Source of the DNA: a bacterium | Lineage (GTDB): Bacteria > Patescibacteriota > UBA1384 > VFKW01 | DNA length: 64,000 bases | Direction of reading: 5' to 3' | NCBI GenBank assembly: GCA_030647355.1 | Contig: JAUSIS010000013.1 | Coordinates: 113,117-177,116 of the forward strand | In this document: piece by piece, positions 5,211 through 39,700 of the stretch | How the letters are laid out: each line of letters opens with the position of its first letter | Position numbering within the stretch: position 1 is the stretch's first letter | Notes under the pieces: model-generated | What the model saw: the letters and a program-made list of their open reading frames with translations, nothing else | What the model was told of the DNA's origin: nothing | Database searches by the model: none | Made by a program: the position numbers and the translations under genes

Positions 5211-6668
5211 ATGTCACTAAGCGCGCCTTTGGATAAAATAATTCCACTAACTGACGCTCGAGATAATTTCTCAAAAATAGTTTCCGAAATAGAGAAAACT
5301 ACTGAAGGCATGTATGTCCTAACCAAAGGCGGCAAACCGTCCGTAGCTATTATCAATATTAATTATTTAGAACGCTTAACCGGCGGTCCATTAATCAAGC
5401 CAAGCGAAGAAAATGAGCAAACAGCTGACGAAGCCGATACCCCAAGCGATGAATCATCCAAACTGGCAAAATTTGACGATAAGTCAGCAGATAAACAAAA
5501 CGATACCAAACAAGACGACGATATTAAAAAAACTCCGACCGGTTTCATAAAACCCGCAATACCCAATACTCCATCATTTACCCCCCCGCCTGCTATAAAA
5601 CCCATCATTCCCATTACCCCCTCTAGCCCTCCAGCCACCCCAACTCCCTCTCCGTCAACTTCCACACCCTCTACACCAAAACCTCCCACACTGGCGCCAC
5701 CCCAACCGCCAATTATAAAACCGGCACCATTTACCCCTCAAGCACCATTCAAACCAACCACCCCCCCGCCTGCCGTCCCATCTCCAAGTACCAATAATCC
5801 TCCGGCACCTACCCCTAAACCACAAGTCAACAACCTCGCTTCCAGTATGAAAACCCCGCCGGCGATCGCCGCTGTTCAAGCGCAGACCCAAACTCCCCCT
5901 GCTCCATCGCCAACCCCGCCCCCGCCAAAAATAAATCCTACCTGGTTAAATCCGGCGCCTCCCACTCCGCCAGCTCCGCCAACCAACCAAACCCCTCCTG
6001 CACAACCGGCCAGCCAACCAATATCGCCGACCGCCGTCTCGACACCCCCCCTGCCGACACCCAAGAATAATACACCAACCCCTGTAACCGCCAATCCAAG
6101 TGGAGCACCTACCCAATCTCCGTCCGCCCCAGGTATACCCCAACCACAACCAACACCTTTTAACGTTCCGAACCAGACACCACCCGCAGCGCCAAAAATA
6201 AATCCTACTTGGCTAAATCCAGCAGCGCCTACCCCTCCCGCTAACCAACCAGCCAGTATGCCGCCAACCCCCCCACCCGCCGCTTCTATCCCAACCAATC
6301 CAACACCACCCATTACCAACCAACCTCCACAACAACCTGCAAAACCCTACAGCCCGCAATTTAACTCCGGAAGCGGTGCTGCTCGAACATTAAGTGTCAA
6401 CCAACCAACTACTGCTCCGACCCCTAACACACCAACCCCGACATCCCCAGTTGCAACAGTCCCCGCCCAAACACCTCCCACCCAAGCTCCCCAAAACCCG
6501 CCAATATCCCCTCCCCCCATCACAAATACGGTTGCCATGACACCCCCGACAACTCCAACTCAACCAGCTACTCCAGCACCCTCTAATCCCACACCCCCCC
6601 AAACTCCACCGATACCTCCCCCGCCTGCTCCTCCTGCAGCCAATTCAGTATCAGATATGGAAATATAG
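5211..6668 (+). CDS. Phd/YefM antitoxin-like N-terminal domain fused to a ~400-aa Pro/Thr-rich low-complexity tail
   Basis: N-terminus LTDARDNFSKIVSEIEKTTEGMYVLTKGGKPSVAIININYLERL matches the YefM/Phd fold. The remainder is P/T/A-rich with an internal repeat, (P/A)PKINPTWLNPA(P/A)PTPPA, present twice. Confidence 0.55.
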   Translation: MSLSAPLDKIIPLTDARDNFSKIVSEIEKTTEGMYVLTKGGKPSVAIININYLERLTGGPLIKPSEENEQTADEADTPSDESSKLAKFDDKSADKQNDTKQDDDIKKTPTGFIKPAIPNTPSFTPPPAIKPIIPITPSSPPATPTPSPSTSTPSTPKPPTLAPPQPPIIKPAPFTPQAPFKPTTPPPAVPSPSTNNPPAPTPKPQVNNLASSMKTPPAIAAVQAQTQTPPAPSPTPPPPKINPTWLNPAPPTPPAPPTNQTPPAQPASQPISPTAVSTPPLPTPKNNTPTPVTANPSGAPTQSPSAPGIPQPQPTPFNVPNQTPPAAPKINPTWLNPAAPTPPANQPASMPPTPPPAASIPTNPTPPITNQPPQQPAKPYSPQFNSGSGAARTLSVNQPTTAPTPNTPTPTSPVATVPAQTPPTQAPQNPPISPPPITNTVAMTPPTTPTQPATPAPSNPTPPQTPPIPPPPAPPAANSVSDMEI

Positions 6669-8623: not shown

Positions 8624-9577
8624 ATGGATCTCAATTCAGCTATTAGGCAATTTCTTGAATATTGCGAGCTCGAAAAAGGACATTCGCCTTTGACAATCAG
8701 GAATTACTCACAATACCTGGAGCGCTTCCATGCATGGGCAAACTTACAGAATATATCAAAACTAGAAGAAATCACTCAGGACACTATAAGGCAATACCGG
8801 CTGTATTTAAATCGAATCCAAGATGAAAACGGCAACAATCTAAAAAAAATCACCATCAATTATCATCTTATAGCCCTGCGCTCGTTTCTGAAATTTATCA
8901 GTAAAAAAGATTTGGCTCAAACTCTGCAAGCAGAAAAAATTGAACTTGCCGATACCGATGAAAGACAAATCAGCTTTCTTAGTCCGGAAGAAGTTGAAAC
9001 ATTGTTAAATCAACCTAATCAAAGCTCAATAATCGGCTTGCGGGATAAAGCAATCCTGGAAACCCTATATTCAACCGGCTTGCGCGTCAGCGAATTAGTC
9101 AATCTTAAACGCGATCAAATCAACATCGAAAAAGGAGAATTTGCAGTCCTTGGTAAGGGCGGCAAGGTTAGAGTTGTCTTCCTTTCCGATCGAGCAAAGA
9201 TTTGTCTTAAGCAATTCCTCGCTAGGCGTAGCGACACTGACGACTATGTCTTTATTCGTTTTGGACGTAAGAAAAACCCGGCATTGCAAATAGGAACTGA
9301 AGAATTAAAACTAACCTCGCGTACAATTCAGAGAATTATCCATCATTATGCAGTAAAAGCGGGCATCATAAAGCCGGTTACACCTCATGTCCTGCGCCAT
9401 AGCTTTGCCACCGACCTACTTTCCAACGGTGCCGACCTTCGTAGCGTCCAAACTCTTCTCGGTCACTCTTCTGTCACCACAACCCAAATCTACACTCACG
9501 TGACAGACCCCCAATTAAAAGAAATTCATAAGCAATTCCACGGCAAAACACTAAAGACACCTCTGGAAAAGAATTAA
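8624..9577 (+). CDS. Tyrosine recombinase XerC/XerD family
   Basis: LRVSEL, HVLRHSFAT and LLGHSSVTTTQIYTHV catalytic-region motifs. RTIQRIIHHYAVKAGI is XerD-like. AAGGAGGA RBS before ATG at 8624. Confidence 0.8.
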   Translation: MDLNSAIRQFLEYCELEKGHSPLTIRNYSQYLERFHAWANLQNISKLEEITQDTIRQYRLYLNRIQDENGNNLKKITINYHLIALRSFLKFISKKDLAQTLQAEKIELADTDERQISFLSPEEVETLLNQPNQSSIIGLRDKAILETLYSTGLRVSELVNLKRDQINIEKGEFAVLGKGGKVRVVFLSDRAKICLKQFLARRSDTDDYVFIRFGRKKNPALQIGTEELKLTSRTIQRIIHHYAVKAGIIKPVTPHVLRHSFATDLLSNGADLRSVQTLLGHSSVTTTQIYTHVTDPQLKEIHKQFHGKTLKTPLEKN

Positions 9578-10253: not shown

Positions 10254-10988
10254 ATGCAGAAAGAAAAATTGACCGACTATTTAAATATCGCTATATCAGA
10301 AATAAACGACGGAAACATGTCATACGTCTGGGGCAACCACCAAGAAGTTCTAGAAAACCGTACAAAATTCTTAGAAAAATCTGGCTTCGATACCAACAAT
10401 TGCGCTGTCATGAGCGTAACACATGGCACAGATATATTGATCGCCGACCAATCATATCGAGGCAAAGGAATGTTTGACCATTCAACTGCCCTAAAAGTTG
10501 ACGCTTTAATGACTCAAGATCCTAAAATTGTTCTTTGCCTACTGATCGCTGATTGCCTGCCAATCGTTTTTTATGATCCAAAAAAAAATATCTTAGCCCT
10601 CGCCCACATGGGTTGGAAAAGCACTAATGAAAAACTTGCCATGAAACTGATCACACTAATGAAACAAAAATTCGGCAGTAATCCAAAGGATATTGTTGTA
10701 TCCATCGGTCCTGGAATACACAAAAAATCTTCTATCTTCCCAAGTCCCGTTCTTCAAGAAAAAACGCTCAATTGGCAGCCTTATTTAAAAAATTTACCGA
10801 ACAACCAAACGTCAGTTGACAATCTCGGATATAACTATCAACAGCTTCTTGATTCGGGTATTATTGCAAAAAATATTGAAATTAACCCAATAGACACAGC
10901 CCAATCGCCGGATTACTTTTCTCACTATCGCTCCGTTCGGACCGGCGAGTCTGAAGGTAGATTCATGGTCGCCGTTCGCTTAAAATAA
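10254..10988 (+). CDS. pgeF: PgeF/YfiH family (Cu-oxidase_4/DUF152) purine nucleoside-processing enzyme
   Basis: HGTDIL...IADCLPIVFYD...ALAHMGWKS motifs of the YfiH family. AT-rich native composition. Confidence 0.7.
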   Translation: MQKEKLTDYLNIAISEINDGNMSYVWGNHQEVLENRTKFLEKSGFDTNNCAVMSVTHGTDILIADQSYRGKGMFDHSTALKVDALMTQDPKIVLCLLIADCLPIVFYDPKKNILALAHMGWKSTNEKLAMKLITLMKQKFGSNPKDIVVSIGPGIHKKSSIFPSPVLQEKTLNWQPYLKNLPNNQTSVDNLGYNYQQLLDSGIIAKNIEINPIDTAQSPDYFSHYRSVRTGESEGRFMVAVRLK

Positions 10989-11169
10989 CAAATCAACGAA
11001 ACTCTCTATGGCATAATTTTCATAGGATAAAATGACAAGCCTGTTTTACATCACTGGAAATTTTTGTATAATCCAGATACGATACAAACCAGCGGGAGGA
11101 AAGTCGTTGAGACATGCAGGAAGACAGACAAGACGGTCAACTTTGCCCTTCAAACAACAAGTCGCCGTA

Positions 11170-11571
11170 ATGTTGCGCACAAGATTCTACATTGGCATGC
11201 TTGTCGCCGGAGAAACCACCGGCACATGGGATGATCCGCTTTTTCAAGCGCCAGATCTCATCCCGCCAATCTCACTTGACGACGAAGAAATCAACATGGT
11301 TGCATTGATGCAAACTGATGATTTCTTGCTGGCAGCCATGGACTACTTGCAAAACGGACTACCGGAAGAGCTTATCGAGAATGGCCTGGACGCATTGGAA
11401 GCGTGGCTTGGATTGGGCATTTTGCGTCTGCAAGTCGGCTTAGCCATTACGGCAGAAGAAATCAGCGAAATCCCGGCAAGTATGTGGGAACTCAACAGAG
11501 ATAAGCTCTGGATAAAGTTCAGAGACGACTACTATTTCTGGAGTGAGCTTTATTTCCCCAAAAGCACCTAA
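11170..11571 (+). CDS. Hypothetical acidic protein (GC-rich cassette); start uncertain
   Basis: ORF in a GC-rich segment downstream of a TTTACA-N16-TATAAT promoter (~11055-11083). Followed by hairpin terminator GGGAAGC...GCTTCCC+T-run at ~11583-11610. Confidence 0.35.
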   Translation: MLRTRFYIGMLVAGETTGTWDDPLFQAPDLIPPISLDDEEINMVALMQTDDFLLAAMDYLQNGLPEELIENGLDALEAWLGLGILRLQVGLAITAEEISEIPASMWELNRDKLWIKFRDDYYFWSELYFPKST

Positions 11572-11655
11572 CTGCACAATGGGAAGCGACAAGCTTCCCT
11601 CTTTTTGTAAACAAAAAAACCCGACGCAATCGTCGGGATATAAGATATAAAATGG

Positions 11656-12273
11656 CTAGCCGCCCGCCGCCGCCTCCTCGGGAGTCACCACATGAATACT
11701 GAATTGACAGTCCAGTGCTGTCTCAAGCCCGAGACGTACCTGGCGAACTTGTTCGCCAGACTCCCCGATCAGCTCGCCGCACTTTGAGATGTAGCGAAAT
11801 CGTAGCAGTCTGCCGGCTTGCATCACTCGAATACCATCCAGATCAGCATTCAAATCCAGCTCACCAATGTCATAGTTGGCATATATCTTGAATAGCTTGC
11901 GAGTCAGCTCATGCGCTTCAGCTCCCCGCGCTTCTCCGCGGTGCCGGGTTCCAATACTCCAAAGCAAGATATATTGACAGGGAGTAACATCCCCCATCCG
12001 CGTTATTAGCTCCAACCACTCATGGGTAACTGGTTTCTCACGATCGAGAAAATAATAATGCCTGCCTGGACGGCCGGTAGCATTGCCATTCTCATAACCT
12101 GAACAGGTGTACCAGAGAACAGTAGTCAAAAGACTATTCTGATACTCCCTATGCGACAGAACAAAGTACGACCGATCCGGGACATAAATCAACCTGATCG
12201 CCTCCCCCAATGTTAATATCAACATACTAAGTCCAAAATTAATTTTCGTCAAATCTGCAAAACAACCGACCAC
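11656..12273 (-). CDS. Hypothetical protein (GC-rich cassette); start uncertain
   Basis: 205-aa ORF. Terminator hairpin CCCGACGATTGCGTCGGG+T-run on the minus strand at ~11615-11645. Confidence 0.35.
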   Translation of the reverse strand: MVGCFADLTKINFGLSMLILTLGEAIRLIYVPDRSYFVLSHREYQNSLLTTVLWYTCSGYENGNATGRPGRHYYFLDREKPVTHEWLELITRMGDVTPCQYILLWSIGTRHRGEARGAEAHELTRKLFKIYANYDIGELDLNADLDGIRVMQAGRLLRFRYISKCGELIGESGEQVRQVRLGLETALDCQFSIHVVTPEEAAAGG

Positions 12274-12487
12274 CCAAGGGCTCTCTTTGCCCCCTTTATT
12301 CAGAGATTAAGACCTTGACAATTCTTTTTGGTATCTCTATAATACGGACACAGTCCGCCAATTGGCTAAATTGTACCTGATCTTTATAAAAGATCATGCC
12401 TGCCAAATAGCACTTTGCGCATTTACCAAGTACTCAAAGCGCTGTTTGGCAAACCCAATCAGCTGTTCCCGGAGTTAGAGGAATGAA

Positions 12488-13045
12488 ATGGTACAAACGG
12501 TGGACAATCCTGTTCGAGTCACCAAAGTGGACCCTCTTGTCCACGCCGTCAATGCGCTCGCGAAGTTATTCGGAGCGCCGTCGTTTCCGGAGGAAAACCT
12601 TGCGGGGTTGACCCTGCAAGGACTTTATAGCAAGATGCTAGCCAGTCAGAGACGAACAAGAAGGCATGTCAGTTGGTGCCTTTCTGGCACAAAGGGTTTC
12701 TACTTCATCGTCAAAGGACATGGCGGGGAAACCGTCGTCCGAATTCATCCGGGGATAAAGACTGGTGATGTAGAGCTGAATGCCAGGTTGAAAAACACCA
12801 AACAAACTGGCCTCGCCCTTGAAGCCCGCTGGGCCTTGGACTATGGTTATGTAATCAGTGCCAAGACCCGAGACGAGAACAGCTTTGATGCTGATTCTCT
12901 CGACTACCAAAAGAATGTCCTTTGTGACATCTTAGGGAGAATCAGCATCATGGCACGTGCCTTAGAAACTGATGAGCCGGAAACCCAGGTAATCCGCCGA
13001 TTCATCGGGGCTCCTGCCTATAAGGCACTGCAACTCGCCGCCTAA
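12488..13045 (+). CDS. Hypothetical protein (GC-rich cassette)
   Basis: 185-aa ORF. Upstream TTGACA-N17-TATAAT promoter at ~12318-12346. Leader contains the palindrome GATCTTTATAAAAGATC. Hairpin terminator CCCAGGA...TCCTGGG+T7 at ~13066-13105. Confidence 0.45.
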   Translation: MVQTVDNPVRVTKVDPLVHAVNALAKLFGAPSFPEENLAGLTLQGLYSKMLASQRRTRRHVSWCLSGTKGFYFIVKGHGGETVVRIHPGIKTGDVELNARLKNTKQTGLALEARWALDYGYVISAKTRDENSFDADSLDYQKNVLCDILGRISIMARALETDEPETQVIRRFIGAPAYKALQLAA

Positions 13046-13215
13046 ACCGCCAGTTATCTGGCATCCGAACCTCACCCAGGATGAAATCAAATTCTCCTGG
13101 GTTTTTTTATACCCATAATCTCAAAAGTCAGTCGAATGCTAGGCTCGCTTGTTTGACGTAAAGACAACTTTATGGTTTACTAAAGCCACTGTTGGTTTTT
13201 TAGGGGGACTGATAA

Positions 13216-13680
13216 ATGAGAATGTTCGCATTGTCAGAAGATCTTCGGTTACAGAGCACTAAGCAAGGCGATGACTTCGTGGTTCGCTTCCCGCTAGGAA
13301 GAAATGGCATTCCTGGCGTTGCACTTTACAACGCTGGGAGAAACAACACAGCCGAAGCACCCGTCGTCAATCTTCCAAGCGACCAGGCACTCATTCTGGC
13401 ACACCGGATCACGGCTCGCTGTCGTGATCATGTCTTTTCGAAAGTCACCGAGGTCAAATCTCTCGGAGACGACTGCTATTACCATATCATACTCAAGTGC
13501 GGCTTCACCTACAGGTTCACGAATGACGCCGATTTCCGGCGGAATATCAAACCGGAAGTCGGGGACATGATCCTCATCCACTTCAACGCCCGCAGAGGCA
13601 AACACTTGGTCATAAAGTCCAGCGGGCAAAGATCGTTTCCGGCCTGCGAGATCACCGACGATGACATCATCGCCGAATAG
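13216..13680 (+). CDS. Hypothetical protein (GC-rich cassette)
   Basis: 154-aa ORF with a GGGGGA RBS. Hairpin terminator GGGGAAC...GTTCCCC+T-run at ~13700-13730. Confidence 0.45.
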   Translation: MRMFALSEDLRLQSTKQGDDFVVRFPLGRNGIPGVALYNAGRNNTAEAPVVNLPSDQALILAHRITARCRDHVFSKVTEVKSLGDDCYYHIILKCGFTYRFTNDADFRRNIKPEVGDMILIHFNARRGKHLVIKSSGQRSFPACEITDDDIIAE

Positions 13681-13934
13681 CCAATCCACACTATTCACGG
13701 GGAACACTACACGTTCCCCTATTTTTAATAAAAAAGACGGAATCCGTGTCCTCTTAAGAAACCAAGATCGCTGCCTCGCCACCGTTTGACAAAAACCTAT
13801 TTTTATGCTAATATATAACATCAAGACAAACCTCGTAATATCTTCCTTCAACCTATGGACAGCGCCTTGCGTACAAAAACAGTATTCAGAGCGCTGTTCA
13901 TAGCATCATATCACTTCGAAGGAGGATCCGTTTC

Positions 13935-14471
13935 ATGGAAAAAATCATCGTTATGGCATTAAGCGCGGTGAAAGTGCTGTTTGGCAAGGTGATTCTCTCT
14001 TGCCAAACAGCCGAGACACTTCAGGAGATCCAGGAAGTTATATCACAATGTCCTGACTGGAGAAAGTCCCTCGACAAGGTCAGCTTCTCCGAGAAGACTG
14101 GCTTATCGCTCTGCCGCCTGATCCACGGAGGTGCCTTATACCTCCAGCTGCGAAACCCCGTCGGACTGGTTAACTCGATCAGGATCGGAGTAATCGTAGC
14201 AGGAGACTCCGAATTCCAAACACCAACGACCTTGAACTTGCTCTTCTGTCAGTTGAAGGATCGGAAAGAATGGCGATTGGAAAAAGCAAGATGTGATCTT
14301 GCGGGAGTCATCGAGCCCGAGCCCATTCTGCGGCTTACGGAGCTACTTGGCCCAAATGGGCTTCCCGAACTAGGAGAAACCCTCAACCAGGCACCAATCG
14401 AACAAACCCGGGAAATCAGGGAGTTTCTGGACTCCTGGGTCCAGCAGCAGGTAACGACCGCAACCGCCTAG
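13935..14471 (+). CDS. Hypothetical protein, paralog A of a tandem pair (178 aa)
   Basis: Shares the block TGLSLCRLIHGGALYLQLRN with TLCQAVIGGALCLRFQE of the downstream 178-aa ORF. Upstream motif GCGCTGTTCATAG is shared with the paralog. GAAGGAGGA RBS. Confidence 0.5.
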   Translation: MEKIIVMALSAVKVLFGKVILSCQTAETLQEIQEVISQCPDWRKSLDKVSFSEKTGLSLCRLIHGGALYLQLRNPVGLVNSIRIGVIVAGDSEFQTPTTLNLLFCQLKDRKEWRLEKARCDLAGVIEPEPILRLTELLGPNGLPELGETLNQAPIEQTREIREFLDSWVQQQVTTATA

Positions 14472-14728
14472 CGACACCAACGCACACCAGAAACATCCTC
14501 ACCCTACAAAACCTCATTCCCCCGAGGCAAGACAAAGCACCACGCTTTTCACCTCGGGGCTTTGTTATTTATAGGCATTTTATAATTTTTAATTGACAAA
14601 ACTCAACAAATATGTGATTTTCAGATTAATATATTGTTCCTTTCAACCCCTCCTAGTGCTTATGGGCAGCACTTTGGATACCTAACTCAAGTATAAAAGG
14701 CATCCGAGGCGCTGTTCATAGACTACAT

Positions 14729-15265
14729 ATGGAGGACATAATGAATATTGTGCAAATGGCTCTTGTAGCGCTACGTGAACTGTTCGAAACTACAATGTCG
14801 GAAGAGTTCCCTGACCTGGGAAGCATCGCTTCCGAGCTGGAAAACATACGGCTTGGCAAATTCAAGTATTCCTACGACAACAACGGATTAACGCTCTGTC
14901 AAGCGGTAATCGGTGGCGCACTCTGCCTTCGTTTTCAAGAATCATCTCGGAGTAACACAGGCAAAGATCGGCTCACAGTCTGGCTCATCGGCGTGAGCTC
15001 CCTGAAGTGCAGCCAACTCACTCTTAGCCTCGGGTACAACCTAATAGGAATTGGGGTAGCGGAACTAGGTGCTATCAACTGCTCTTGGAGCACATCAGAT
15101 GTAGTTGCAAGCGGCGAGCCGATCAGTGCTTTCTTAAGACTGCTCCGGTTAGACGACTACAAAATGCTGGAAAGCGCCCTGAAAGCCAAGGAGGGTTTGG
15201 ATGACGTGCGCTACCTGAAGTACCTTCTCGATCTCTGGCGCCAGCGTTACCCAGAAAGCAAGTGA
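14729..15265 (+). CDS. Hypothetical protein, paralog B of a tandem pair (178 aa)
   Basis: Same length and conserved central block as 13935-14471. Upstream GCGCTGTTCATAG motif. Followed 12 nt later by a small Zn-ribbon ORF. Confidence 0.5.
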   Translation: MEDIMNIVQMALVALRELFETTMSEEFPDLGSIASELENIRLGKFKYSYDNNGLTLCQAVIGGALCLRFQESSRSNTGKDRLTVWLIGVSSLKCSQLTLSLGYNLIGIGVAELGAINCSWSTSDVVASGEPISAFLRLLRLDDYKMLESALKAKEGLDDVRYLKYLLDLWRQRYPESK

Positions 15266-15277
15266 AAGGAGCCCTGT

Positions 15278-15502
15278 ATGTTTCTTGCCCAATGTATCTT
15301 TGGTTTGTTCGTAGGCAGTATGATGTGCTATGTGTTGTGGTTCGTTTTCTTCGATCGCGAATGTCCCAAGTGCCATTCGCACTACATCAAGCACAACGAT
15401 GAATGCATTGCCGGAGGCGCCTACTTTCGAACCGTATTCTGCCGGAACTGCAGATACGTTCTCGAAACCAAGACTATCTGCGCCCCTATCTGCCATATAT
15501 GA
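15278..15502 (+). CDS. Small membrane-anchored zinc-ribbon protein (74 aa)
   Basis: N-terminal TM helix followed by CPKC...CRNC (two CxxC pairs). Tightly linked downstream of paralog B. Confidence 0.45.
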   Translation: MFLAQCIFGLFVGSMMCYVLWFVFFDRECPKCHSHYIKHNDECIAGGAYFRTVFCRNCRYVLETKTICAPICHI

Positions 15503-15594
15503 CCCCTGACGACATGTCTCGGGTCTCTTTTTATCTTTACAGAGTGAACCTTCGGTGTATAATACTAATAACGCTGCACCTTAAGGAGTAGAAG

Positions 15595-16506
15595 ATGGGA
15601 AAGATTCTCGCCCTTATGTGTCCCGGACAAGGATCGGCACACATTGGCATGGGTGAGGATCTTTATCAAACCTCGTCCTATGCCCGAACCGTTTACCATT
15701 TCGCCGACGACTATCTAAGGGGTTATCTCCGACAAATCCTGCCTTTTGAGCATTCCGACCTGACCTTGAGTAGTATCTGCTTCGAGGGGCCCCGGGAACT
15801 TCTGGAGCTACCCTCGATTGCGCCGCTGGCTGTTTTTGTCACCAGTATCGCTAACCTCCGTCTTCTTGAGGAGATAGCCGAAGAGGTAGAATGGATAGTC
15901 GCCGGACACAGCCTCGGTGAATATACTGCCTTGGTTGCCTCTAGAGTTCTGACTTACCAACAAGCCCTCTCACTAGTTCTTATCCGAACCAGATTGATGG
16001 TTCATCACGCGAGTCGAATAAACGGCGCAATGGTAGCTACTCTGGGGTTAACTGAAGCACAGGTTGCCGAAATCTGCCAGAAACACCAGCCCACAGGTGT
16101 GATCGTCATGGCAAATTACAACTGTCCGGGACAAATCGTGCTCTCGGGAGATAAGCTTGTACTTGAGAATGCCTGTCAAGACATTCTCCGCCTTGGAGGA
16201 AAGACGCGCGAACTCAATGTCGGCGGTCCCTGGCATTCCCCCCTGATGCAGCCTGCCGCTGATAAGTTCAAACCGCATCTTCGTAGAGCCAAGATCGCCT
16301 CACCCACAGGAACGCTCTACCTAAGCGGTACCGGACGGAAGGTTTCCGCACCTGCAACCATCCGCCATCACCTGCGTATTCAAATGGTATCTCCCGTACT
16401 CTGGGAGAAAACCATTCGCAACATGCTAAGAGATGGAGTAACCGACTTTATCGAGCTCGAACCGAGCAGGATACTAAGGGGATTTCTCAAGCGCATCAAG
16501 TCCTAG
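15595..16506 (+). CDS. fabD: Malonyl-CoA:ACP transacylase family acyltransferase (FabD-like)
   Basis: CPGQGS N-terminal motif, GHSLGEY active-site nucleophile elbow, ANYNCPGQIVLSG, and PWHSPLMQPAADKF as in FabD. GC-rich. Confidence 0.8.
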   Translation: MGKILALMCPGQGSAHIGMGEDLYQTSSYARTVYHFADDYLRGYLRQILPFEHSDLTLSSICFEGPRELLELPSIAPLAVFVTSIANLRLLEEIAEEVEWIVAGHSLGEYTALVASRVLTYQQALSLVLIRTRLMVHHASRINGAMVATLGLTEAQVAEICQKHQPTGVIVMANYNCPGQIVLSGDKLVLENACQDILRLGGKTRELNVGGPWHSPLMQPAADKFKPHLRRAKIASPTGTLYLSGTGRKVSAPATIRHHLRIQMVSPVLWEKTIRNMLRDGVTDFIELEPSRILRGFLKRIKS

Positions 16507-16583
16507 CCATCTAGGACTTTTTTTATGCTCAATAGACACTACACTAATACAACAACATACCAGTTTTTCACAAGCAAAGCTCG

Positions 16584-16796
16584 GTGTATAATATAGCTAT
16601 GCTAAAAAAATATCTACTCTATCTGCTAATGGGGCTGGTTGCTGAAGGCATCATCCGAGGGTTTTTCTATTTTGAAGATCGCTACCAAGCCACTCATCCT
16701 GTAAAGCAAAAAATCAATATTGAGAAAGTTGACCCAAAATATCGTCAGGACCTGCAAGACCTGAAAGATCTCAAAGATACCATTAACGGACAATAA
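16584..16796 (+). CDS. Small membrane protein with C-terminal DLKDLKD motif
   Basis: One TM helix. C-terminus ...DLQDLKDLKD matches the ...DLKDLKDLY C-terminus of the 47351-47653 small membrane ORF. Confidence 0.35.
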   Translation: MYNIAMLKKYLLYLLMGLVAEGIIRGFFYFEDRYQATHPVKQKINIEKVDPKYRQDLQDLKDLKDTINGQ

Positions 16797-16916
16797 TCTC
16801 CGGCCACAACCTCAAAAGCGCCTGTTGTAATATTAGCTAACCGGTTGACTTTGGCTGACAATTATAGTATACTTTTCGCATACTGAACGACCGAACGACT
16901 ATTTTGGAGGTAACCA

Positions 16917-17192
16917 ATGTCTGCTGCACAGATACCCGCCTCTCCCCCAAGTCTTGAGATTCCGACGCCCCCCACCGCCACCACCTACCGAGATGAAGGC
17001 CACGATGGCTCTCCTCCGGTTCAGGTCGGATGTACTCAATTCAACTCACATACTTGCCCTCTTCGCTTCCGGGGCCGCAACGAACCCTCGGAATGGTCAG
17101 GGGCCAAGTATGAGTACGATCCTCTACCGCCCCTGGACCACGACCCTGTGTGGTGCGCTACCTGCCCCGACAGGAGGCAGAAGATCAAATGA
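16917..17192 (+). CDS. Small Pro-rich Cys-containing protein (possible Zn ribbon)
   Basis: Strong GGAGGT RBS. CTQFNSHTC...CATC cysteine pairs. TTGACT-N17-TATACT promoter at ~16845-16873. Terminator at 17459-17492. Confidence 0.4.
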   Translation: MSAAQIPASPPSLEIPTPPTATTYRDEGHDGSPPVQVGCTQFNSHTCPLRFRGRNEPSEWSGAKYEYDPLPPLDHDPVWCATCPDRRQKIK

Positions 17193-17458
17193 ACTATTCG
17201 GGCTTTGCTGGATTGCGCGAATTCGTCAAGGCAATGACCACCTGTGGCAAGAGCATACGCTTGGATTAAGTCCTACTGATCCAAGCAGCAGCCGAAAAGG
17301 CCAAGCTCAGCTAGGAGCAGCGCATTGAGATCTATGAGATACTCGCTGCATCAGGATCTGATAGCATAGCGCAGAGTCGGCTGGAGAAACTCATGACTGG
17401 CACGGAAAGCCAAGTCACATCCGGCGCCGCCTAGGCGCCCGAACTTCATCCCACCCCA

Positions 17459-17492
17459 CCCCCGCCCTTTCCCAGAAAGAGCGGGGTTTTTT
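17459..17492 (+). terminator. Intrinsic terminator, family CCCACCCC...stem...TTTTTTCATACC
   Basis: Hairpin CCCCGCCCTTTC-CCAGA-GAAAGAGCGGGG followed by T6 and CATACC. Confidence 0.6.
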
Positions 17493-17506
17493 CATACCTC
17501 CACCGC

Positions 17507-17535
17507 TTGACCAGTTGTTTATGTAATGCAATAAT
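17507..17535 (+). promoter_or_regulatory. sigma70-type promoter TTGACC-N17-AATAAT upstream of purD
   Basis: Starts 14 nt after the TTTTTTCATACC terminator tail. Confidence 0.45.
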
Positions 17536-17600
17536 CCAGGCAACGCATTGTAGTAAATTCTGCATAACAACAAACCATAGAAACGGAGGAAAACACAGTA

Positions 17601-18878
17601 ATGCGTGTACTTATCGTCGGAAAGGGCGGACGTGAGCATGCTCTAACATGGATGATCACCCAAAGCCCAAGAAAGCCGGAAATTCTGGCAGCACCGGGCA
17701 ATCCCGGCATCGCCAAGTTCGGCACGTGCTATCCAATTTCGGACACAAACCTGGACGGCATCGTCAACCTGGCAGTTGAGAAAAAGGTCGACATCGTTGT
17801 AGTCGGCCCTGAAAACCCTCTGGACGCTGGCTTAGTTGACCGCTTGGCAGACGCCAATATTCTGGCATTCGGCCCCACAGCCGCCGCCGCGCGACTCGAG
17901 TCATCCAAGCTTTTTGGCAAAGGGATCATGGAAGCCGCCGGTGTCACCACTCCTGACTATCGGGCGTTCAACAATCCCGGGAAGGCGCTCAAGTACCTGC
18001 GAGAGCTGCATCTCAGCGACTTCCCGATTGTCATCAAAGCCGACGGTCTCGCTTTTGGCAAAGGCGTCTATATCTGCCTGACTCTGGAAGCCGCCGAGCG
18101 AGCAGTCCAAAACCTCATGGTCGCACGGCTTCTCGGAGAAGCCGGTGACGCCATCCTGGTCGAGGACTTCGTGAGCGGATTGGAATGCTCGGTACTCGCC
18201 GTCTGCGACGGCGAACGCTTCGTCTATTTCCGCGCCATTCGCGACTACAAGCGAATCGGCGTTGGAGACACAGGCGAGAACACTGGCGGAATGGGAGCTG
18301 TTACACCGGTTCCTGGATGCGACATCGCCTTCCACGAATGGGTAGCAGATCACATCATCGCACCCATACTCGCAGAGATGAGACGGCGCGGCATCCCCTA
18401 CAAGGGCTGCCTCTACCTCGGCTTGCTGATCAAGGACGGCGTGATCTATGTGTTGGAATTCAATGTTCGCTTCGGCGACCCTGAAACCCAACCGGCCATG
18501 CTGATGCTTGACGAGGATCTCCTGAAACTGATGCTGGATGCGAGCCACGGCAATCTTGCCATCTCCCGTCCTGCTAGGTGGCTCAATGGAGCAGCCGCCT
18601 GCATCGTCGGCGCCGCCAATGGCTATCCTGGCAATTACGCTAAGGGCAAAGCCATCTACGGCATCAACGAGGTCGAAACTGACGACACAATCGCCTTCCA
18701 AGCCGGTACTGCGCGTCACGGAAACATACTCGTCACCGACGGCGGCAGAGTAGTCGGCGTAACGTCTTACGACGCCAATAGTCTGCCGGCAGCGCTTGAC
18801 AAGTCCCTGGCAGGAATCAGTAAAATCCGCTGCTCGGACATGATCTGGCGCCCCGACATCGGCCACAACGCCGTCTGA
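17601..18878 (+). CDS. purD: Phosphoribosylamine--glycine ligase (GAR synthetase)
   Basis: MRVLIVGKGGREHALTW N-terminus, PGNPGIA, an ATP-grasp core and PurD C-domain all colinear with PurD. Very GC-rich relative to the backbone. Confidence 0.85.
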   Translation: MRVLIVGKGGREHALTWMITQSPRKPEILAAPGNPGIAKFGTCYPISDTNLDGIVNLAVEKKVDIVVVGPENPLDAGLVDRLADANILAFGPTAAAARLESSKLFGKGIMEAAGVTTPDYRAFNNPGKALKYLRELHLSDFPIVIKADGLAFGKGVYICLTLEAAERAVQNLMVARLLGEAGDAILVEDFVSGLECSVLAVCDGERFVYFRAIRDYKRIGVGDTGENTGGMGAVTPVPGCDIAFHEWVADHIIAPILAEMRRRGIPYKGCLYLGLLIKDGVIYVLEFNVRFGDPETQPAMLMLDEDLLKLMLDASHGNLAISRPARWLNGAAACIVGAANGYPGNYAKGKAIYGINEVETDDTIAFQAGTARHGNILVTDGGRVVGVTSYDANSLPAALDKSLAGISKIRCSDMIWRPDIGHNAV

Positions 18879-18912
18879 CCAAATCATCCGGAACTAAACA
18901 CCGGCAACCAAC

Positions 18913-18932
18913 GCCCCTTCGGGGGCTTTTTT
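18913..18932 (+). terminator. Intrinsic terminator after purD (GCCCCTTCGGGGGC+T6+CATACC)
   Basis: Perfect tetraloop hairpin followed by a T-run. The same hairpin type recurs at ~19674-19700. Confidence 0.65.
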
Positions 18933-18946
18933 CATACCAGTTAATC

Positions 18947-18975
18947 TTGACAAAAAAGCGTTTATACCGTACAAT
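18947..18975 (+). promoter_or_regulatory. Consensus sigma70-type promoter TTGACA-N17-TACAAT
   Basis: Located right after the TTTTTTCATACC terminator of purD. Drives the 19089 cassette. Confidence 0.55.
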
Positions 18976-19088
18976 CACATGTTGGTTGCACCTCTGGAAT
19001 CTTCCTTGATTGGCTGCGCTTTGGATATTGTTCAAATCAGTATTCAAACCGTTGCCAACCACCAACGAAAAAATAGGAGGATTACCGT

Positions 19089-19661
19089 TTGAATGCACGC
19101 CAACGAATGATCTGTTTTGTCCAAGGGATAGTTGCCGGACTCTGGAACAACCCGAAGTTCGAAACCGCTATCCTACCTGAGGCAACCGGGCTGAAACGGC
19201 TCGAGAATAGTTTCAGCCAGTACCCGGCACCCGCGGAACCGAACCGTATCATAACGGAGTACGGGCATGATGTCTTGAGTATTGGCTACATGACACTCGG
19301 CGGGCTGTTGACTTTCAACTGCTACCCCTACTCTTACATCATGTGTTGCATCAGGACTACCGTCGGACCTGACAGCCTGGAACAACTCTTCTCTCTCGGT
19401 TGGAACCTCAAAACCGACCAGATGGATAGGGTTGGAACGCCTAACTCAAATATCCTGTATCAAGGACTAAACGGCGCTTTCCTGGATCGGCTCAACGAAC
19501 AACTCGATGTTCTTGGACGGATACTGGCCGGCAGGTATCCCGGTGCTGACATCTATGGCTATTACACCGACCAGCTCAAGCAAATGCTGATGGCGGACGA
19601 GAGTCCTAGTGCGGTATTGTTCCGCGATCTACTCCTTGAATGCGGCTCGATCAGAGCCTAA
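19089..19661 (+). CDS. Hypothetical protein (GC-rich cassette)
   Basis: 190-aa ORF with a GGAGGA RBS. Own promoter at 18947-18975 and terminator at ~19674-19700. Confidence 0.45.
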   Translation: MNARQRMICFVQGIVAGLWNNPKFETAILPEATGLKRLENSFSQYPAPAEPNRIITEYGHDVLSIGYMTLGGLLTFNCYPYSYIMCCIRTTVGPDSLEQLFSLGWNLKTDQMDRVGTPNSNILYQGLNGAFLDRLNEQLDVLGRILAGRYPGADIYGYYTDQLKQMLMADESPSAVLFRDLLLECGSIRA

Positions 19662-19761
19662 CGATCCCCTACCAACGCCCCTTCGGGGGTTCTTTTTTTA
19701 TTTCCATGCGTTTGGGTTGACCTTGATAATCGCTCAGCTTATACTCAAGCAAAGGAGCATT

Positions 19762-20370
19762 ATGCAAAAAAGTCCAGAGACATTTACGGAATTAGACCAC
19801 GACGAAGTGCAACGAAAAAGAGATATTGCCGAAATCGAACATTTTAAATTTAAGGGTGCCTGGAAAAGAATAGGCGCCGATTGCTCTGGAGATTCCAGAG
19901 GAGCATGCGCACGAAGCAATAGTGGCAAATGTGGTGTCTACCATAACTGTGAAGCTGCCTCGGCAGCAATGGGGCCCGAGGAAATATGCCCAGCTCACAC
20001 ATCCGAAGAAGATGCTCATAAAGAAGCGGAAGCTATTTACGAAAAAGTTAGTCAACTGGCAAAATTCCATGATATTAGCGATAAGTCCTTTGAATTAAAA
20101 CATGAAATTATCGCTACTAACGGTGATAAAGTTCAACCGAAATATATACTTGATAAAACAGACGAAAGATCAACTGAAGATTTAGCTTGGTATGATCCTG
20201 AGGACATTAAAACTAGTCTAATACTCAAAACAAACTTCCAAAAAGATAGTGATCGGGAAGGGAATGATAATTCTTCTTTCGAGCTTCCTCCGTCTCCTAC
20301 CCCGGAACAGCTAGGAATACTAAAAGAATTCTGCGAAATTCATGGATTATTTAGATCCGAACAACAATAG
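19762..20370 (+). CDS. Hypothetical acidic protein with Cys-rich segment
   Basis: Start at MQKSPETF after an AAAGGAG RBS. Promoter TTGACC-N17-TATACT at 19716-19745. Confidence 0.4.
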   Translation: MQKSPETFTELDHDEVQRKRDIAEIEHFKFKGAWKRIGADCSGDSRGACARSNSGKCGVYHNCEAASAAMGPEEICPAHTSEEDAHKEAEAIYEKVSQLAKFHDISDKSFELKHEIIATNGDKVQPKYILDKTDERSTEDLAWYDPEDIKTSLILKTNFQKDSDREGNDNSSFELPPSPTPEQLGILKEFCEIHGLFRSEQQ

Positions 20371-20450
20371 AGAAACTATATTACTCGAAAAAGCCCGCTT
20401 GACCAGTTACCGACGGGGTGTATAATCCAGACAAAGAAAAGAAAGCTTGA

Positions 20451-21335
20451 ATGAATAACCTTAGAGATAAACCACTTTTTATAGTCACCCTTTTAGCAGC
20501 ACTACTAGCTTTTTGTATATTCAAGAATGAGCTAAGTCAAAAAACAATTTTCTTGGGAATTGCACATACGAACTTATTACAGTTGATTCTCATATTTGCC
20601 ATTCTCCTTTCGCTATCAGCATATTTATACGCATTAGATTTCGTTAGATATGGCACCAGTTTCGAGAATAACATCATCTTGAGACGTTTTATCCTCGTCG
20701 GACACTTTTTTTATATCTTAGCAGTTTTCTTTCCTATAATTATTGGGTTAGTTTGGCTCATAGTCTGGTTATTAAATATTATCTTAGCAAACGTAATTGT
20801 TAATCAGATAGTTACAGTAGTAGTTCTTAGTCTGTCATTTTTCATAAGTAGTTACTTTGCAGACAAAATGAAAAGAAGCCAGAGGAATCAGTTGGCAGAA
20901 AAAATACAAGAGAAAACCGAAGAAAATATGGAAAGAGCATTTGAGCTATATACACAAAAATTTTACCCATCTTTCATTTTAGAAAGCTATAACACCGCTC
21001 TTTCCTTGATTCGAACTACGCTTGAATCAAAAGGCTATAGCACTATTAATCTGCCTGCTACAACGCTCCTGCTGCTCGCCAAGAAAGAAAAGGTTATTTC
21101 ACCATCAGCGCAGGAAAAATTAAATAAACTAAAGATTCTTAGAAATAAAGCAGCCCACATGAATATTACTTTGAGTAAAGCAGATGCTGATTTTGCTAAG
21201 GAAATAGTCAAAAGCATATCAAAACAATTAGATTTCCATCAGTTACTCGAGAAGGAAACGGAAGAAGACCAGCAGAAGTTTAACAAACAAATTAAAACAA
21301 TACAAAATTATATAAAAAAAATTAGAAATAAATAA
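20451..21335 (+). CDS. Membrane-anchored protein with C-terminal HEPN-like (Rx4H, DUF4145-like) domain
   Basis: About four N-terminal TM helices. C-terminal LNKLKILRNKAAHMN carries an Rx4H HEPN motif in a helical context. Very AT-rich. Confidence 0.45.
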   Translation: MNNLRDKPLFIVTLLAALLAFCIFKNELSQKTIFLGIAHTNLLQLILIFAILLSLSAYLYALDFVRYGTSFENNIILRRFILVGHFFYILAVFFPIIIGLVWLIVWLLNIILANVIVNQIVTVVVLSLSFFISSYFADKMKRSQRNQLAEKIQEKTEENMERAFELYTQKFYPSFILESYNTALSLIRTTLESKGYSTINLPATTLLLLAKKEKVISPSAQEKLNKLKILRNKAAHMNITLSKADADFAKEIVKSISKQLDFHQLLEKETEEDQQKFNKQIKTIQNYIKKIRNK

Positions 21336-36722: not shown

Positions 36723-39700
36723 CTATTCCTCCGCCGGCACTTCCACCACCGACGTGATCGTACCCGTCGGTAGGTAAGACACGATAAACGCCCGGGAAAT
36801 CCCTCCGTAGTAACCAGTAACTTTCATTTTATTCAATGACTGGGTGTAGGCAATAAGGTTAAGGTAAAAAACCGCATTCCGCACATAGTCTAAAGTCCCT
36901 GGATGATATTGTCGTATAAATTGCTGTGTTGCTAAGTTATTGGGAGTTGCATACCAAACAGTCCATGGAGGTGACGGGGGCTTGTAATAGTGGAATTCTT
37001 GTTCCCAATATTTATTAAACGGGCTGGCAAGGTCGTCTATATCTATTGTAATCTCAACTAAATCATCGATTAGCGCATTTCCAAATCCCCTCTTAATTGC
37101 CAGCCCATTGAGCCATTCTTTCCAATAATCACCGTCTCCCCAAGTACTTGAATCATCAGGATCGTATCCCGGCGGTACGCCTTTGGAGAAAGCACTATTC
37201 ATCAAATCTAAATATTCGATCTGGCTGGATAGGCCGGATGCGCCAGCCAACGAACGGGATGAAATAAACAGAAATCCTCCTTTATCATCCACGCTGGCTA
37301 CCGCCATATTGGCCAGATCGCAAACCTGCCGGGCATTCCCGTCATGGTCTGTTCTGGTTTCGACCTTTTCATTATCCTCATTGTAGTAAGGAAGCTTTCT
37401 TAGCTTCCATCCCGGCTTACTTTGACATGGATAAGTTGCCAGTACATCAAATTTTAGTCCTAAATCGGTAATAGCATAAGCATTTAGACCGTAACCCATA
37501 TAACCACCCGTAACATATCCGGGTTCGCCTATCTTTAACACATCCCTCAATCGGGCGCTATTTAAACGAAAAATTGGATACAAACCGTTCCGGTCATAAA
37601 GACTGGCAAAAATCGGATGAGAAAATTCTACTGATGATCCATCTGTATTGCCCGGACTATTAGACCAGACGTCAAAGCCGTATTCGTTTGGAGGTGGGCT
37701 TCCTATCGGGGGTATATCCGCCAAATCTACTTTGGGATTCTGATCGGACCGTTCATAAGCATAACTGTAATCACCGCTATAAAAAAGCAGATTACCGGCG
37801 GTCTGATCGATGCTAATCGACTGGCTGCCGCTTGTAGAAATCGGCCGGTCTAACCCAAGTTTATCGTCAGGATTATTTTTGAAAAGTTCCCAAGTCTGCT
37901 GGGTTCCGTCAGTTTTAGCGTTAAGTTTCCATAAGAAATTCTTATTCGAAAGACTCGCCCCCGAGGAGCTTCCTCCCCACAGGTAAAGAAAATCTTCTCC
38001 TGCTATAGAGGCATAGTTTAAAGATCCGGCAGTTCTCGTCCTTGGCTTCTTGCTTGGATCAGTATCAACTTTCGGATCAGAATCTACTTTGACATATCTC
38101 CAGTCAACTCTCCAGTTATCAGGTAGTCCGGCTAATTGAGAAACTTCACCTACCCACGAAATAAATGATTGATCCGAAGTGTCTGTATTCAAAACAAACA
38201 TCTTATTACTGCCATTAGAAGTAAACAGATCGCCAGACGTCAAACTATAGGAGGGTTGATACCGCAGTAGTATCCTATGATCATTGTCAGCAATACTCTC
38301 AATATTATCAACAGTCGCAATAAACAGCTTGTTATTTCCGCTGATAATCGGCCCTAATGTTATCTGCTTGCCAGCATACAAACCCCTTGCTTGAGAATCG
38401 TCAAGCTGTAAAGTTGCAGGAGCATCGGTAATCAAGTCTTTAGTGATTGATGTGCTTAAAACCTCGCTGTTATAACTGCCTAAATTTACACTAAACATGG
38501 TTAATCCGTTATTTGCCAAAACCTCGCTGGTTCCACCAAGTATTAAATTATTTTCAAACTCAATTTTTTGACATCCTCGAGATCCAGGCGGATTAGTCGA
38601 AAAACAGCTAGCATCATAAAATATTTTTTTAACAGTACCCTTCATTCTCTGATTTTGCGTTCCTTGATCATCAACCGGACCAACAAGGTACTCCATTCCC
38701 AACGCAATCCCCCTTATGGTGCCTTGAGCTACTTTCAATACTTTAACTGTATCGTTCGGCACGGAGTTATTCATCCTCCCTTCGGGCACTAAAACAGCCT
38801 CATTCTGAATACTGCCTCCCAAGTGGTACATATTAAAATTAACGTTGCTGGATACGCCCTTGGGTTTCAGAAAATGCCAGGTCGGGCTCGCAGTAGTTAC
38901 GCCGGTTAATCTCCATGATGGCTTTTGAATTTTCATGTGGCTGTATCCGCCGAATACATACAAAGTATCCTCGGAAAAAACATAATAGCCCTGCGGATTA
39001 GACATATAATTCGGGCCCTCATAGAGCTGCCTGATGGATTTAACGGGTTGACCGGCTATCACCCCGACTTCGCTAACCCTCCCCCAGTAAACCTCATCAT
39101 AACTATCGGTTTGCTCTAAGTTTGGACTGTTTCCATAATAAGTGGCGACATCTCCCGGCGCCAAGCACCTGTTGCCATTACCCAAAGGATTAGCGCTATT
39201 CGTCATCTCGTCGCAACCCGGAGTTACGGTTGTTGCATTCGATAATTGAAGGGTTAATCTCCTTGTATCCGCAACTGACTCTGTATTCCTGCCCGCCAAT
39301 GGCTGGTCAAAGTGCAATTGATATCTGTAGGTTCCAAATCCAACGTCAGTACCGTCTGGAAACCTGGTAATTTTCGAAATCTTCCCCTTTAAATCAACAT
39401 ATTCAGTATCCCCGCCCGAACCATCTTTGGGCCCGTAAACTCGTATAATATCTCCCACCGTTAATCCGTCCGGATATACCTCATCGCCCACAGCGCCATG
39501 AGGAGCATATACGCTCGAGCGCATACTTAAAGTCACTTCATGTATTTCATTAGCTGGCAGCGTCGTTTTGGGCGTGATATTCGGCTCAATCCAATAATCG
39601 GTCGTTGGATTTACGGCCGAAGAACTGTTGATTGATTTATGCGAAAACACTTCTTGGAGGTAATCTCCGTCAGCTAGTACATCTATAACCGGACGGTCTA

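Follow-up and report, generated by a model that had tools for sequence, protein, structure and literature searches.

The window analysed here, a stretch of 64,000 nucleotides (nt) from contig JAUSIS010000013.1 of a patescibacterial genome (assembly GCA_030647355.1), carries a predicted hairpin in the 5' leaders of four small orphan genes. Sequence comparison indicates that the hairpin is a previously undescribed, locally repeated 5'-leader RNA element. We put a probability of about 0.5 on the reading that a lineage-specific cassette has undergone at least four local duplications and that its leader masks the Shine–Dalgarno (SD) sequence, acting on translation. The genes concerned, in which the open reading frames (ORFs) 1 and 2 form a paralogous pair, are:

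12488-13045, + strand: the 12488 gene, an orphan of 185 amino acids (aa), NCBI Q7S37_04695.
13935-14471, + strand: ORF1, orphan paralog A, 178 aa, NCBI Q7S37_04705.
14741-15265, + strand: ORF2, orphan paralog B, 174 aa from its SD-supported start, NCBI Q7S37_04710.
19089-19661, + strand: the 19089 gene, an orphan of 190 aa, NCBI Q7S37_04735.

The initial annotation of this DNA had pointed to a conserved motif, GCGCTGTTCATAG, upstream of both ORF1 and ORF2. The 13-mer is indeed exact at 13891-13903 and 14709-14721 and occurs nowhere else in the window (about 0.002 occurrences of a given 13-mer are expected by chance in 128 kb), and the GCGCTGTT core that had been noticed before the 12488 gene is present at 12439-12446. 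The distance of about 35-45 nt from the start codon holds for ORF1 (44 nt) but not for ORF2 (20 nt to 14729, 32 nt to 14741). The conserved 5' element is real and is not a generic promoter; it sits downstream of the predicted promoter. It is not free-standing, however, being the 3' arm of a hairpin in the 5' untranslated region. An alignment of the two upstream regions shares far more than the 13-mer, namely a -35 box TTGACAAAA, a -10 box, a pyrimidine stretch, the inverted repeat and the SD sequence. The partner arm of GCGCTGTTCATAG is CTATGGACAGCGC at 13853-13865 before ORF1 and TTATGGGCAGCAC at 14661-14673 before ORF2. The GCGCTGTT copy before the 12488 gene likewise forms the 3' arm of such a hairpin (12401-12451), and a fourth, more diverged copy at 19010-19058, outside the coordinates covered by the initial annotation, precedes the 190-aa orphan gene at 19089. 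The element thus recurs before genes other than the tandem pair. The four hairpins are:

12401-12451, + strand: hairpin copy 1, 21 base pairs (bp), holding the GCGCTGTT core, 64.9 bits.
13853-13903, + strand: hairpin copy 2, 20 bp, with GCGCTGTTCATAG as 3' arm, 66.6 bits.
14660-14721, + strand: hairpin copy 3, about 21-22 bp, with GCGCTGTTCATAG as 3' arm, 55.9 bits.
19010-19058, + strand: hairpin copy 4, 19 bp, 51.4 bits.

All four contain 19-21 pairs with one to three single-base mismatches, and their single-sequence fold z-scores against shuffled sequence range from -4.8 to -6.7. RNAalifold and pair counts on the four copies gave a consensus of 20 pairs in which 92.5% of the cells are paired. 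Seven of the 20 pairs have changed on both sides in a compensatory manner. The base of the stem reads CUAUGG/UCAUAG in two copies, GCCAAA/UUUGGC in the third and UUGGC/GCCAA in the fourth; the outer stem varies in sequence yet stays complementary. The covariation score of the hairpin is 0.608, a value reached by none of 500 shuffles (0.385 ± 0.06), and pairing falls to 29-43% when the register is slid by 1-3 columns. Compensatory changes preserve the pairs of a structured RNA, in only four paralogous sequences.

The two strands differ in this respect. Twelve cells of the hairpin hold G-U pairs, whose counterparts on the opposite strand would be A-C mismatches, and a covariance model gives the copies 51-67 bits on the + strand and 20-31 bits on the - strand. 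Because of the G-U pairs, the sense hairpin is more stable than the antisense hairpin in three of the four copies. Searched through the 64-kb window with filters off, the covariance model found four sites only. Every one is on the + strand, with a predicted promoter before it and an SD sequence after it; no further copy was found in an extra 10 kb of left flank from the same assembly (about 74 kb in total, of a 242-kb contig).

These data bear on a rival explanation that places the function of the inverted repeat in the DNA, as an operator at which a dimeric repressor silences the strong promoters. The repeat does lie just downstream of near-consensus promoters, and its inner half-sites CAGCRC and GCGCTG are conserved. 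The spacing between these conserved inner half-arms, however, varies from 24 to 36 nt, and half-sites 24-36 bp apart are hard to fit to a dimeric DNA-binding protein. Operators also do not need intramolecular complementarity, whereas here the outer arms change but remain complementary through the seven compensatory pairs, 12 cells are G-U, and the opposite strand scores 30-40 bits lower. We therefore regard the operator as very unlikely.

No match to the whole window was found in Rfam 15 at gathering thresholds. Relaxing the search to E ≤ 5 over 12300-19100 brought up nothing above chance level; the matches included L20_leader, at 23 bits where the threshold is 58.7, and microRNA models. A scan with a degenerate pattern hit at least 120 metagenome stretches and, separately, 13 viral stretches, and all those listed score at most 23 bits with the covariance model. 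Since the true copies score 51-67 bits, we take the listed matches to be chance palindromes. Small upstream ORFs (ATGGAC..., ATGGGC...) were considered as leader peptides and rejected: they have no SD sequence, are not present in all copies, and their ATG lies inside the stem.

The coding region of ORF1 contains a hairpin of its own. Located 40 nt into the gene at 13976-14011 on the + strand, it is a perfect 13-bp hairpin with a 10-nt loop (GCTGTTTGGCAAG...CTTGCCAAACAGC). Its arm and flank, AAAGTGCTGTTTGGCAA, are identical at 16 of 17 positions to the 3' arm of the 12488 leader hairpin, as judged by comparing 13971-14011 with 12400-12452. The sequence TTGCCAAACAGC occurs exactly three times in the window, each time inside the paralog locus, and the internal hairpin falls at a five-residue insertion of ORF1 relative to ORF2. 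Template switching, gene conversion or a trans RNA–RNA interaction could account for it.

It is conceivable from this recurrence that the leader is a neutral relic, functionless and conserved by recent gene conversion or template switching between copies. The reappearance of a 16/17-nt stretch of the 12488 leader arm in the ORF1 coding region, within a perfect palindrome, suggests that DNA-level exchange or palindrome-correcting events have occurred at the locus. The leader copies are not near-identical, however, and compensatory substitutions keep their pairing, while the flanking intergenic and coding DNA retains no residual nucleotide similarity. A global DNA identity comparison of leader against coding sequence relied on a scoring that was too permissive (shuffled mean 0.60). 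We consider the relic quite unlikely.

The leaders are embedded in a common architecture. The order of a near-consensus sigma-70 promoter, a pyrimidine anti-SD sequence, the hairpin, the SD sequence, the gene and a terminator was found before and around 12488, 13935, 14741 and 19089, with leaders of 100-140 nt and genes of 174-190 aa. Each of the four cassettes is, by these predictions, an independent transcription unit with its own promoter and terminator. The predicted elements are:

12315-12343, + strand: promoter of unit 1, TTGACA-17-TATAAT, matching the consensus at 12 of 12 positions.
12478-12483, + strand: SD sequence of the 12488 gene, GAGGAA, partly paired to UUCCC at 12466-12470.
13074-13109, + strand: intrinsic terminator of unit 1.
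13786-13814, + strand: promoter of ORF1, TTGACA-17-TAATAT with a TG extension.
13840-13849, + strand: anti-SD sequence of ORF1, AUCUUCCUUC, pairing with 13918-13927.
13918-13927, + strand: SD region of ORF1, GAAGGAGGAU, with a predicted probability of being unpaired, P(unpaired), of 0.001.
14520-14570, + strand: intrinsic terminator of ORF1.
14593-14632, + strand: promoter region of ORF2, with TTGACA at 14593 and the conserved TAATAT at 14627-14632.
14649-14653, + strand: anti-SD sequence of ORF2, CCUCC, pairing with GGAGG at 14731-14735.
15501-15533, + strand: weak terminator-like hairpin and T-run closing the unit of ORF2 and a 74-aa ORF.
18947-18975, + strand: promoter of unit 4, TTGACA-17-TACAAT.
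18998-19007, + strand: anti-SD sequence of unit 4, AAUCUUCCUU, pairing with AGGAGGAUU at 19075-19083.
19677-19697, + strand: terminator of unit 4, following the 19089 gene.

The predicted promoters at 12315, 13786 and 18947 match 10-12 of the 12 consensus positions. The ORF2 promoter has the same -35 box, and an 11-nt insertion relative to ORF1 displaces its TAATAT. In three copies the anti-SD sequence lies 2-6 nt 5' of the hairpin and the SD sequence 10-16 nt 3' of it, and the helix between them has 10 pairs for ORF1, five for ORF2 and nine for the 19089 gene. Because the anti-SD sequence is predicted to pair with the SD sequence across the hairpin, the leader would form one long bipartite helix.

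We estimated the accessibility of the SD sequence by partition function, comparing the full leader with a leader from which the RNA 5' of the hairpin apex had been removed. The P(unpaired) values for the SD sequences are:

12488: 0.28 in the full leader; 5' removal not applicable.
ORF1 (13935): 0.001 in the full leader, 0.40 after 5' removal.
ORF2 (14741): 0.001-0.002 in the full leader, 0.80 after 5' removal.
19089: 0.005 in the full leader, 0.66 after 5' removal.

Ranked by SD masking among 45 genes of the window, the leaders of ORF1, ORF2 and the 19089 gene occupy the first, third and fifth places. In silico, then, three of the four leaders pair their SD sequence with an upstream anti-SD sequence. 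The element would belong to a well-known type, that of leaders for SD masking or processing, here attached to a lineage-specific, strongly diverged gene family.

In the masking reading, the cassette would have been duplicated locally at least four times, the proteins diverging and the leader RNA being retained. The hairpin would serve as a clamp that keeps the ribosome-binding site closed, and messenger RNA (mRNA) made from the strong promoters would be translated only once the leader had been opened. The likeliest opener would be RNase III, cutting the two-turn helix of double-stranded RNA (dsRNA) and parting the anti-SD from the SD sequence in the manner of E. coli adhE; a protein that binds dsRNA or hairpins might instead open the leader. 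The predicted stems would be long enough for RNase III, whose substrates have about 20-22 bp of nearly unbroken dsRNA. We infer SD masking in vivo, the start sites and a trans-acting factor.

RNase III unmasks an occluded ribosome-binding site in E. coli adhE and phage lambda cIII (PMC5371410). As in those two cases, the leaders described here are predicted to be long 5' untranslated regions in which the SD sequence is paired intramolecularly beside a helix of about two turns and of RNase III length. They differ in having no sequence relationship to either case, in being repeated before four genes of one locus, and in the position of the anti-SD and SD sequences, which flank the long helix and are not within it.

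The whole leader is one extended imperfect hairpin with the SD sequence at its base, a shape it has in common with SD-sequestering RNA thermometers. These include the Listeria prfA leader, ROSE and fourU. In contrast to helices that melt physiologically, the anti-SD:SD helix has 9-10 uninterrupted pairs in two copies and would be far stabler, and no Rfam match to thermometer families was obtained.

The main rival holds that the hairpin is an element of mRNA stability or processing only, either a 5' stabiliser or an entry site for RNase III decay as in pnp/rnc, and treats the anti-SD pairing as a by-product. In its favour, the helix runs regularly over a long stretch of 19-21 bp, and the 12488 copy retains the hairpin in a leader with no 5' anti-SD sequence. 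Predicted SD masking is also common among the other genes of the window, and decay-triggering RNase III leaders are known (PMC5371410). On the other hand, the anti-SD sequence AUCUUCCUU is conserved at nine of nine positions between the ORF1 and 19089 leaders, in the same place beside the hairpin, and it makes 9-10 bp with the SD sequence. In the predicted transcripts, moreover, the hairpin is not 5'-terminal. We judge a pure stability element to be unlikely, if less so than the operator or the relic.

Several points weigh against masking by the leader. The alignment comprises four sequences, all of them paralogous copies of one genome, so the covariation counts are few and not independent of shared ancestry; the conservation of the stem between copies could in part come from gene conversion instead of selection. 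P(unpaired) also falls below 0.05 in roughly one control gene in four (background median 0.33), which makes SD masking a weak criterion by itself. The 12488 leader has no 5' anti-SD sequence, the promoter spacing of ORF2 is disturbed, and the transcription start sites are predictions. Cleavage by RNase III is putative and drawn from precedent.

A further step would be to regard the four leaders as a small, lineage-specific post-transcriptional regulon in which one trans-acting factor gates the diverged orphan proteins through the shared hairpin. We hold this extension to be doubtful. Candidates for the factor would be RNase III, a cluster-encoded dsRNA- or hairpin-binding protein, or RNA–RNA strand exchange between hairpins, an option suggested by the match of the ORF1-internal hairpin to the 12488 leader arm at 16 of 17 nt. 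Were the regulon real, an RNA control element would evolutionarily outlast the proteins that it controls. If the masking model is right, the hairpin would be an undescribed cis-regulatory RNA motif of a deep-branching uncultivated bacterium, and the leader RNA would have outlasted detectable protein homology across duplicated genes. Such a shared leader could then mark and group paralogs that are otherwise unrecognisable. As the evidence concerns one locus in one metagenome-assembled genome, its wider significance is modest.

Both ORFs that had been placed at 13935-14471 and 14729-15265 are present, and the statement that they have the same length is approximately right (178 aa for ORF1, probably 174 aa for ORF2). 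The start of ORF2 is most probably the ATG at 14741 rather than position 14729, because GGAGG at 14731-14735 sits 5 nt upstream of the former and no SD sequence precedes the latter. The 174-aa form is called by both NCBI (Q7S37_04710) and Logan. The paralogy of the two proteins was borne out, at a distance, by BLASTP (E = 5e-6, 24% identity over 176 aa). Their similarity extends past the short central block that had first been noticed, as seen in the full-length BLASTP alignment and in a Smith–Waterman score of 76 (shuffles 29.8 ± 4.9, z = 9.3, 0 of 300 as high). It is confined to the frame 0/0 translation, the eight other frame combinations giving z < 2.5. Since the similarity is seen between the annotated frames only, it reflects conservation at the protein level, and both ORFs are coding. 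By a codon-usage log-odds score trained on 17 housekeeping genes of the window, the annotated frame is the best of the six in ORF1, ORF2, the 12488 gene and the 19089 gene.

AlphaFold2 gave models of low confidence for both paralogs, with a predicted local distance difference test (pLDDT) of 39.1 for ORF1 from a two-sequence alignment and of 39.7 for ORF2 alone. The rough order of elements is alike in the two low-confidence models, running from helix-helix through a beta-sheet to a three-helix segment. The N-terminus of ORF1 is hydrophobic but atypical, as two Lys residues interrupt it and it ends in ILSC; ORF2 has no signal-peptide-like segment or hydrophobic N-terminus.

The 12488 and 19089 proteins gave hhalign E-values of 0.13 and 0.28 against ORF1/ORF2, with co-linear motifs (an N-terminal LF(G/E), a central GG and then a G). 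As further paralogs they have no statistical support in Smith–Waterman comparison (z < 1). ORF1 and ORF2 thus seem to be the sole pair still recognisably related at the protein level. The shared leader, similar length and cassette structure suggest, and do not demonstrate, that the four genes are of common descent.

A k-mer/HMMER search for homologs of the ORF1, 12488 and 19089 proteins returned only self-matches, and none of the four orphan proteins has a match in Pfam, NCBIfam, PHROGs, PADLOC or by PDB sequence search. An exhaustive profile search with the ORF1 and ORF2 alignment through 1.84 billion representatives found no further family member. It listed both selves and two giant proteins, which we consider artefacts because their scores sum about ten near-identical repeat matches of 4-6 bits each. 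Among the species-representative genomes of GTDB, the best match to the neighbouring fabD is 38% identical, and no close relative was available for synteny. The orphan status of the four proteins is therefore explained in part by the isolation of the lineage, in which even fabD is at most 38% identical to its best match.

Diverging tandem paralogs with a conserved 5' element had been read as a polymorphic immunity, toxin or variable-surface family in an acquired island, where the 5' element would be a shared control or recombination region. The genes are indeed small, tandem, strongly diverged orphans, like the immunity genes of polymorphic toxins that lack wider homologs. The hydrophobic N-terminus of ORF1 ending in ILSC and the membrane-anchored Cys-rich mini-protein after ORF2 also fit such a family. 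This attribution found no support, however. Searches with Pfam, NCBIfam, PHROGs and PADLOC detected no toxin, delivery, immunity or defence domain in either paralog or in the ORFs scanned across 8.6-22.4 kb. Neither a toxin gene nor a delivery gene adjoins the paralogs, known immunity families gave no match, and the profile search described above gave no other member. Each gene has its own promoter and terminator as an independent unit, which differs from a toxin operon. A variable-surface role is further at odds with ORF2, which has no signal-like segment, and with ORF1, whose hydrophobic segment is broken by two Lys. The leader copies, too, are only partly identical and carry compensatory changes, in contrast to the near-identical 5' regions that typify phase-variable surface gene families. 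We find a polymorphic family very improbable.

The paralogs lie in chromosomal DNA, where the window together with its left flank holds dnaE, L27, L19, gltX, NDK, XerC/D, pgeF, fabD, purD, YchF and GroEL, together with a homolog of the type II secretion/type IV pilus protein F, and the 10 kb of left flank beyond the window consists of housekeeping genes. As the orphan genes are interleaved with pgeF, fabD and purD, they do not constitute one acquired island, and the nearby recombinase is XerC/XerD-like and not a phage or integron integrase.

That recombinase, a tyrosine recombinase at 8624-9577, raises another reading, in which it would act on the hairpins as attC-like sites within an array of gene cassettes. 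Like integron attC sites, they are imperfect palindromes of similar size (50-60 nt) between co-oriented small orphan genes. The recombinase scores 266 bits for XerD and 256 bits for XerC, whereas the integron-integrase model TIGR02249 reaches 132 against a cut-off of 265, in two pieces, so an IntI-type integrase is not present here. The arms (CTATGGACAGCGC and GCGCTGTTCATAG, or GCCAAATAGC and GCTGTTTGGC) contain no RYYYAAC / GTTRRRY boxes and no R''/R' consensus. In addition, the hairpins stand after dedicated promoters and before SD sequences, every gene has its own promoter and terminator, housekeeping genes break up the array, and the strand-asymmetric G-U pairing points to RNA. An attC array is extremely unlikely. 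The REP/BIME/MITE elements are also short palindromic repeat families within one genome, and the present element differs from them in having four copies in about 74 kb, in one orientation and at a fixed site between promoter and SD sequence. No RAYT or transposase gene was identified near the hairpins, where not every ORF was scanned for one.

The small ORF that follows ORF2 is:

15278-15502, + strand: 74-aa ORF with an N-terminal hydrophobic helix and two CxxC pairs, NCBI Q7S37_04715.

As first described, this ORF is present, begins 12 nt past the ORF2 stop and contains CPKC...CRNC, with CPKC at residues 29-32 and CRNC at residues 55-58. It has an AAGGAG SD sequence and a hydrophobic N-terminus (KD19 2.17), and would be co-transcribed with ORF2 in the predicted unit. 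Its best Pfam match, Zn_ribbon_RPB9, is weak (E = 0.019, 15.3 bits against a cut-off of 25.2), and a PDB sequence search found no relative. The assignment as a zinc ribbon is only suggestive. The codon score favours the frame antisense to the 74-aa ORF, a comparison confounded by nine Cys codons. The gene calls conflict as well: NCBI has the 74-aa ORF on the + strand, and Logan has an antisense 115-aa ORF at 15149-15496 that overlaps the 3' end of ORF2 by 117 nt.

A second conflict of strands concerns 13216-13851. Within it, a minus-strand ORF at 13294-13821 (175 aa), called by NCBI (Q7S37_04700) and Logan, crosses a + strand intrinsic terminator (13699-13719 and a T-run) and enters the ORF1 promoter. 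On the + strand, an ORF at 13216-13680 (154 aa) has a GGGGGA SD sequence, a plausible extended -10 promoter and a terminator right after its stop. The codon scores of the two are equal (0.06 for the + ORF versus 0.07 for the minus ORF). The public annotation may be on the wrong strand here.

Near-consensus sigma-70 promoters are over-represented at 10900-20500, where 25 were counted against 9.4 ± 2.9 in shuffles. Nearly all genes of this region are served by a promoter and an intrinsic terminator of their own, fabD and purD among them. The fourth leader unit is closely followed by a 294-aa ORF at 20451-21335, in a low-GC patch (34%). Its HEPN-type matches are weak (DUF4145 at E = 5.6e-4; AbiU2 and HEPN under their cut-offs), and the ORF may be a small gene for defence, or a toxin-like one, that was acquired.

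Elsewhere in the window, a 485-aa ORF at 5211-6668 carries at its N-terminus a domain resembling Phd/YefM antitoxins (Pfam E = 4.7e-6, narrowly missing the cut-off), followed by a Pro/Thr/Ala-rich low-complexity tail of about 400 residues; in place of this ORF, Logan calls three short minus-strand shadow ORFs. The extreme GC skew at this ORF (-0.4 to -0.5) is due to the Pro/Thr/Ala-rich tail. GC skew is negative on the + strand window-wide, whatever the gene orientation (cumulative -10.5 over 64 kb), and GC content is patchy, ranging from 29% to 57%. A protein of 1796 aa encoded at 36723-42113 on the - strand has only weak matches to Kelch/beta-propeller repeats and adjoins the type II secretion/type IV pilus protein F gene at 45471-46664.

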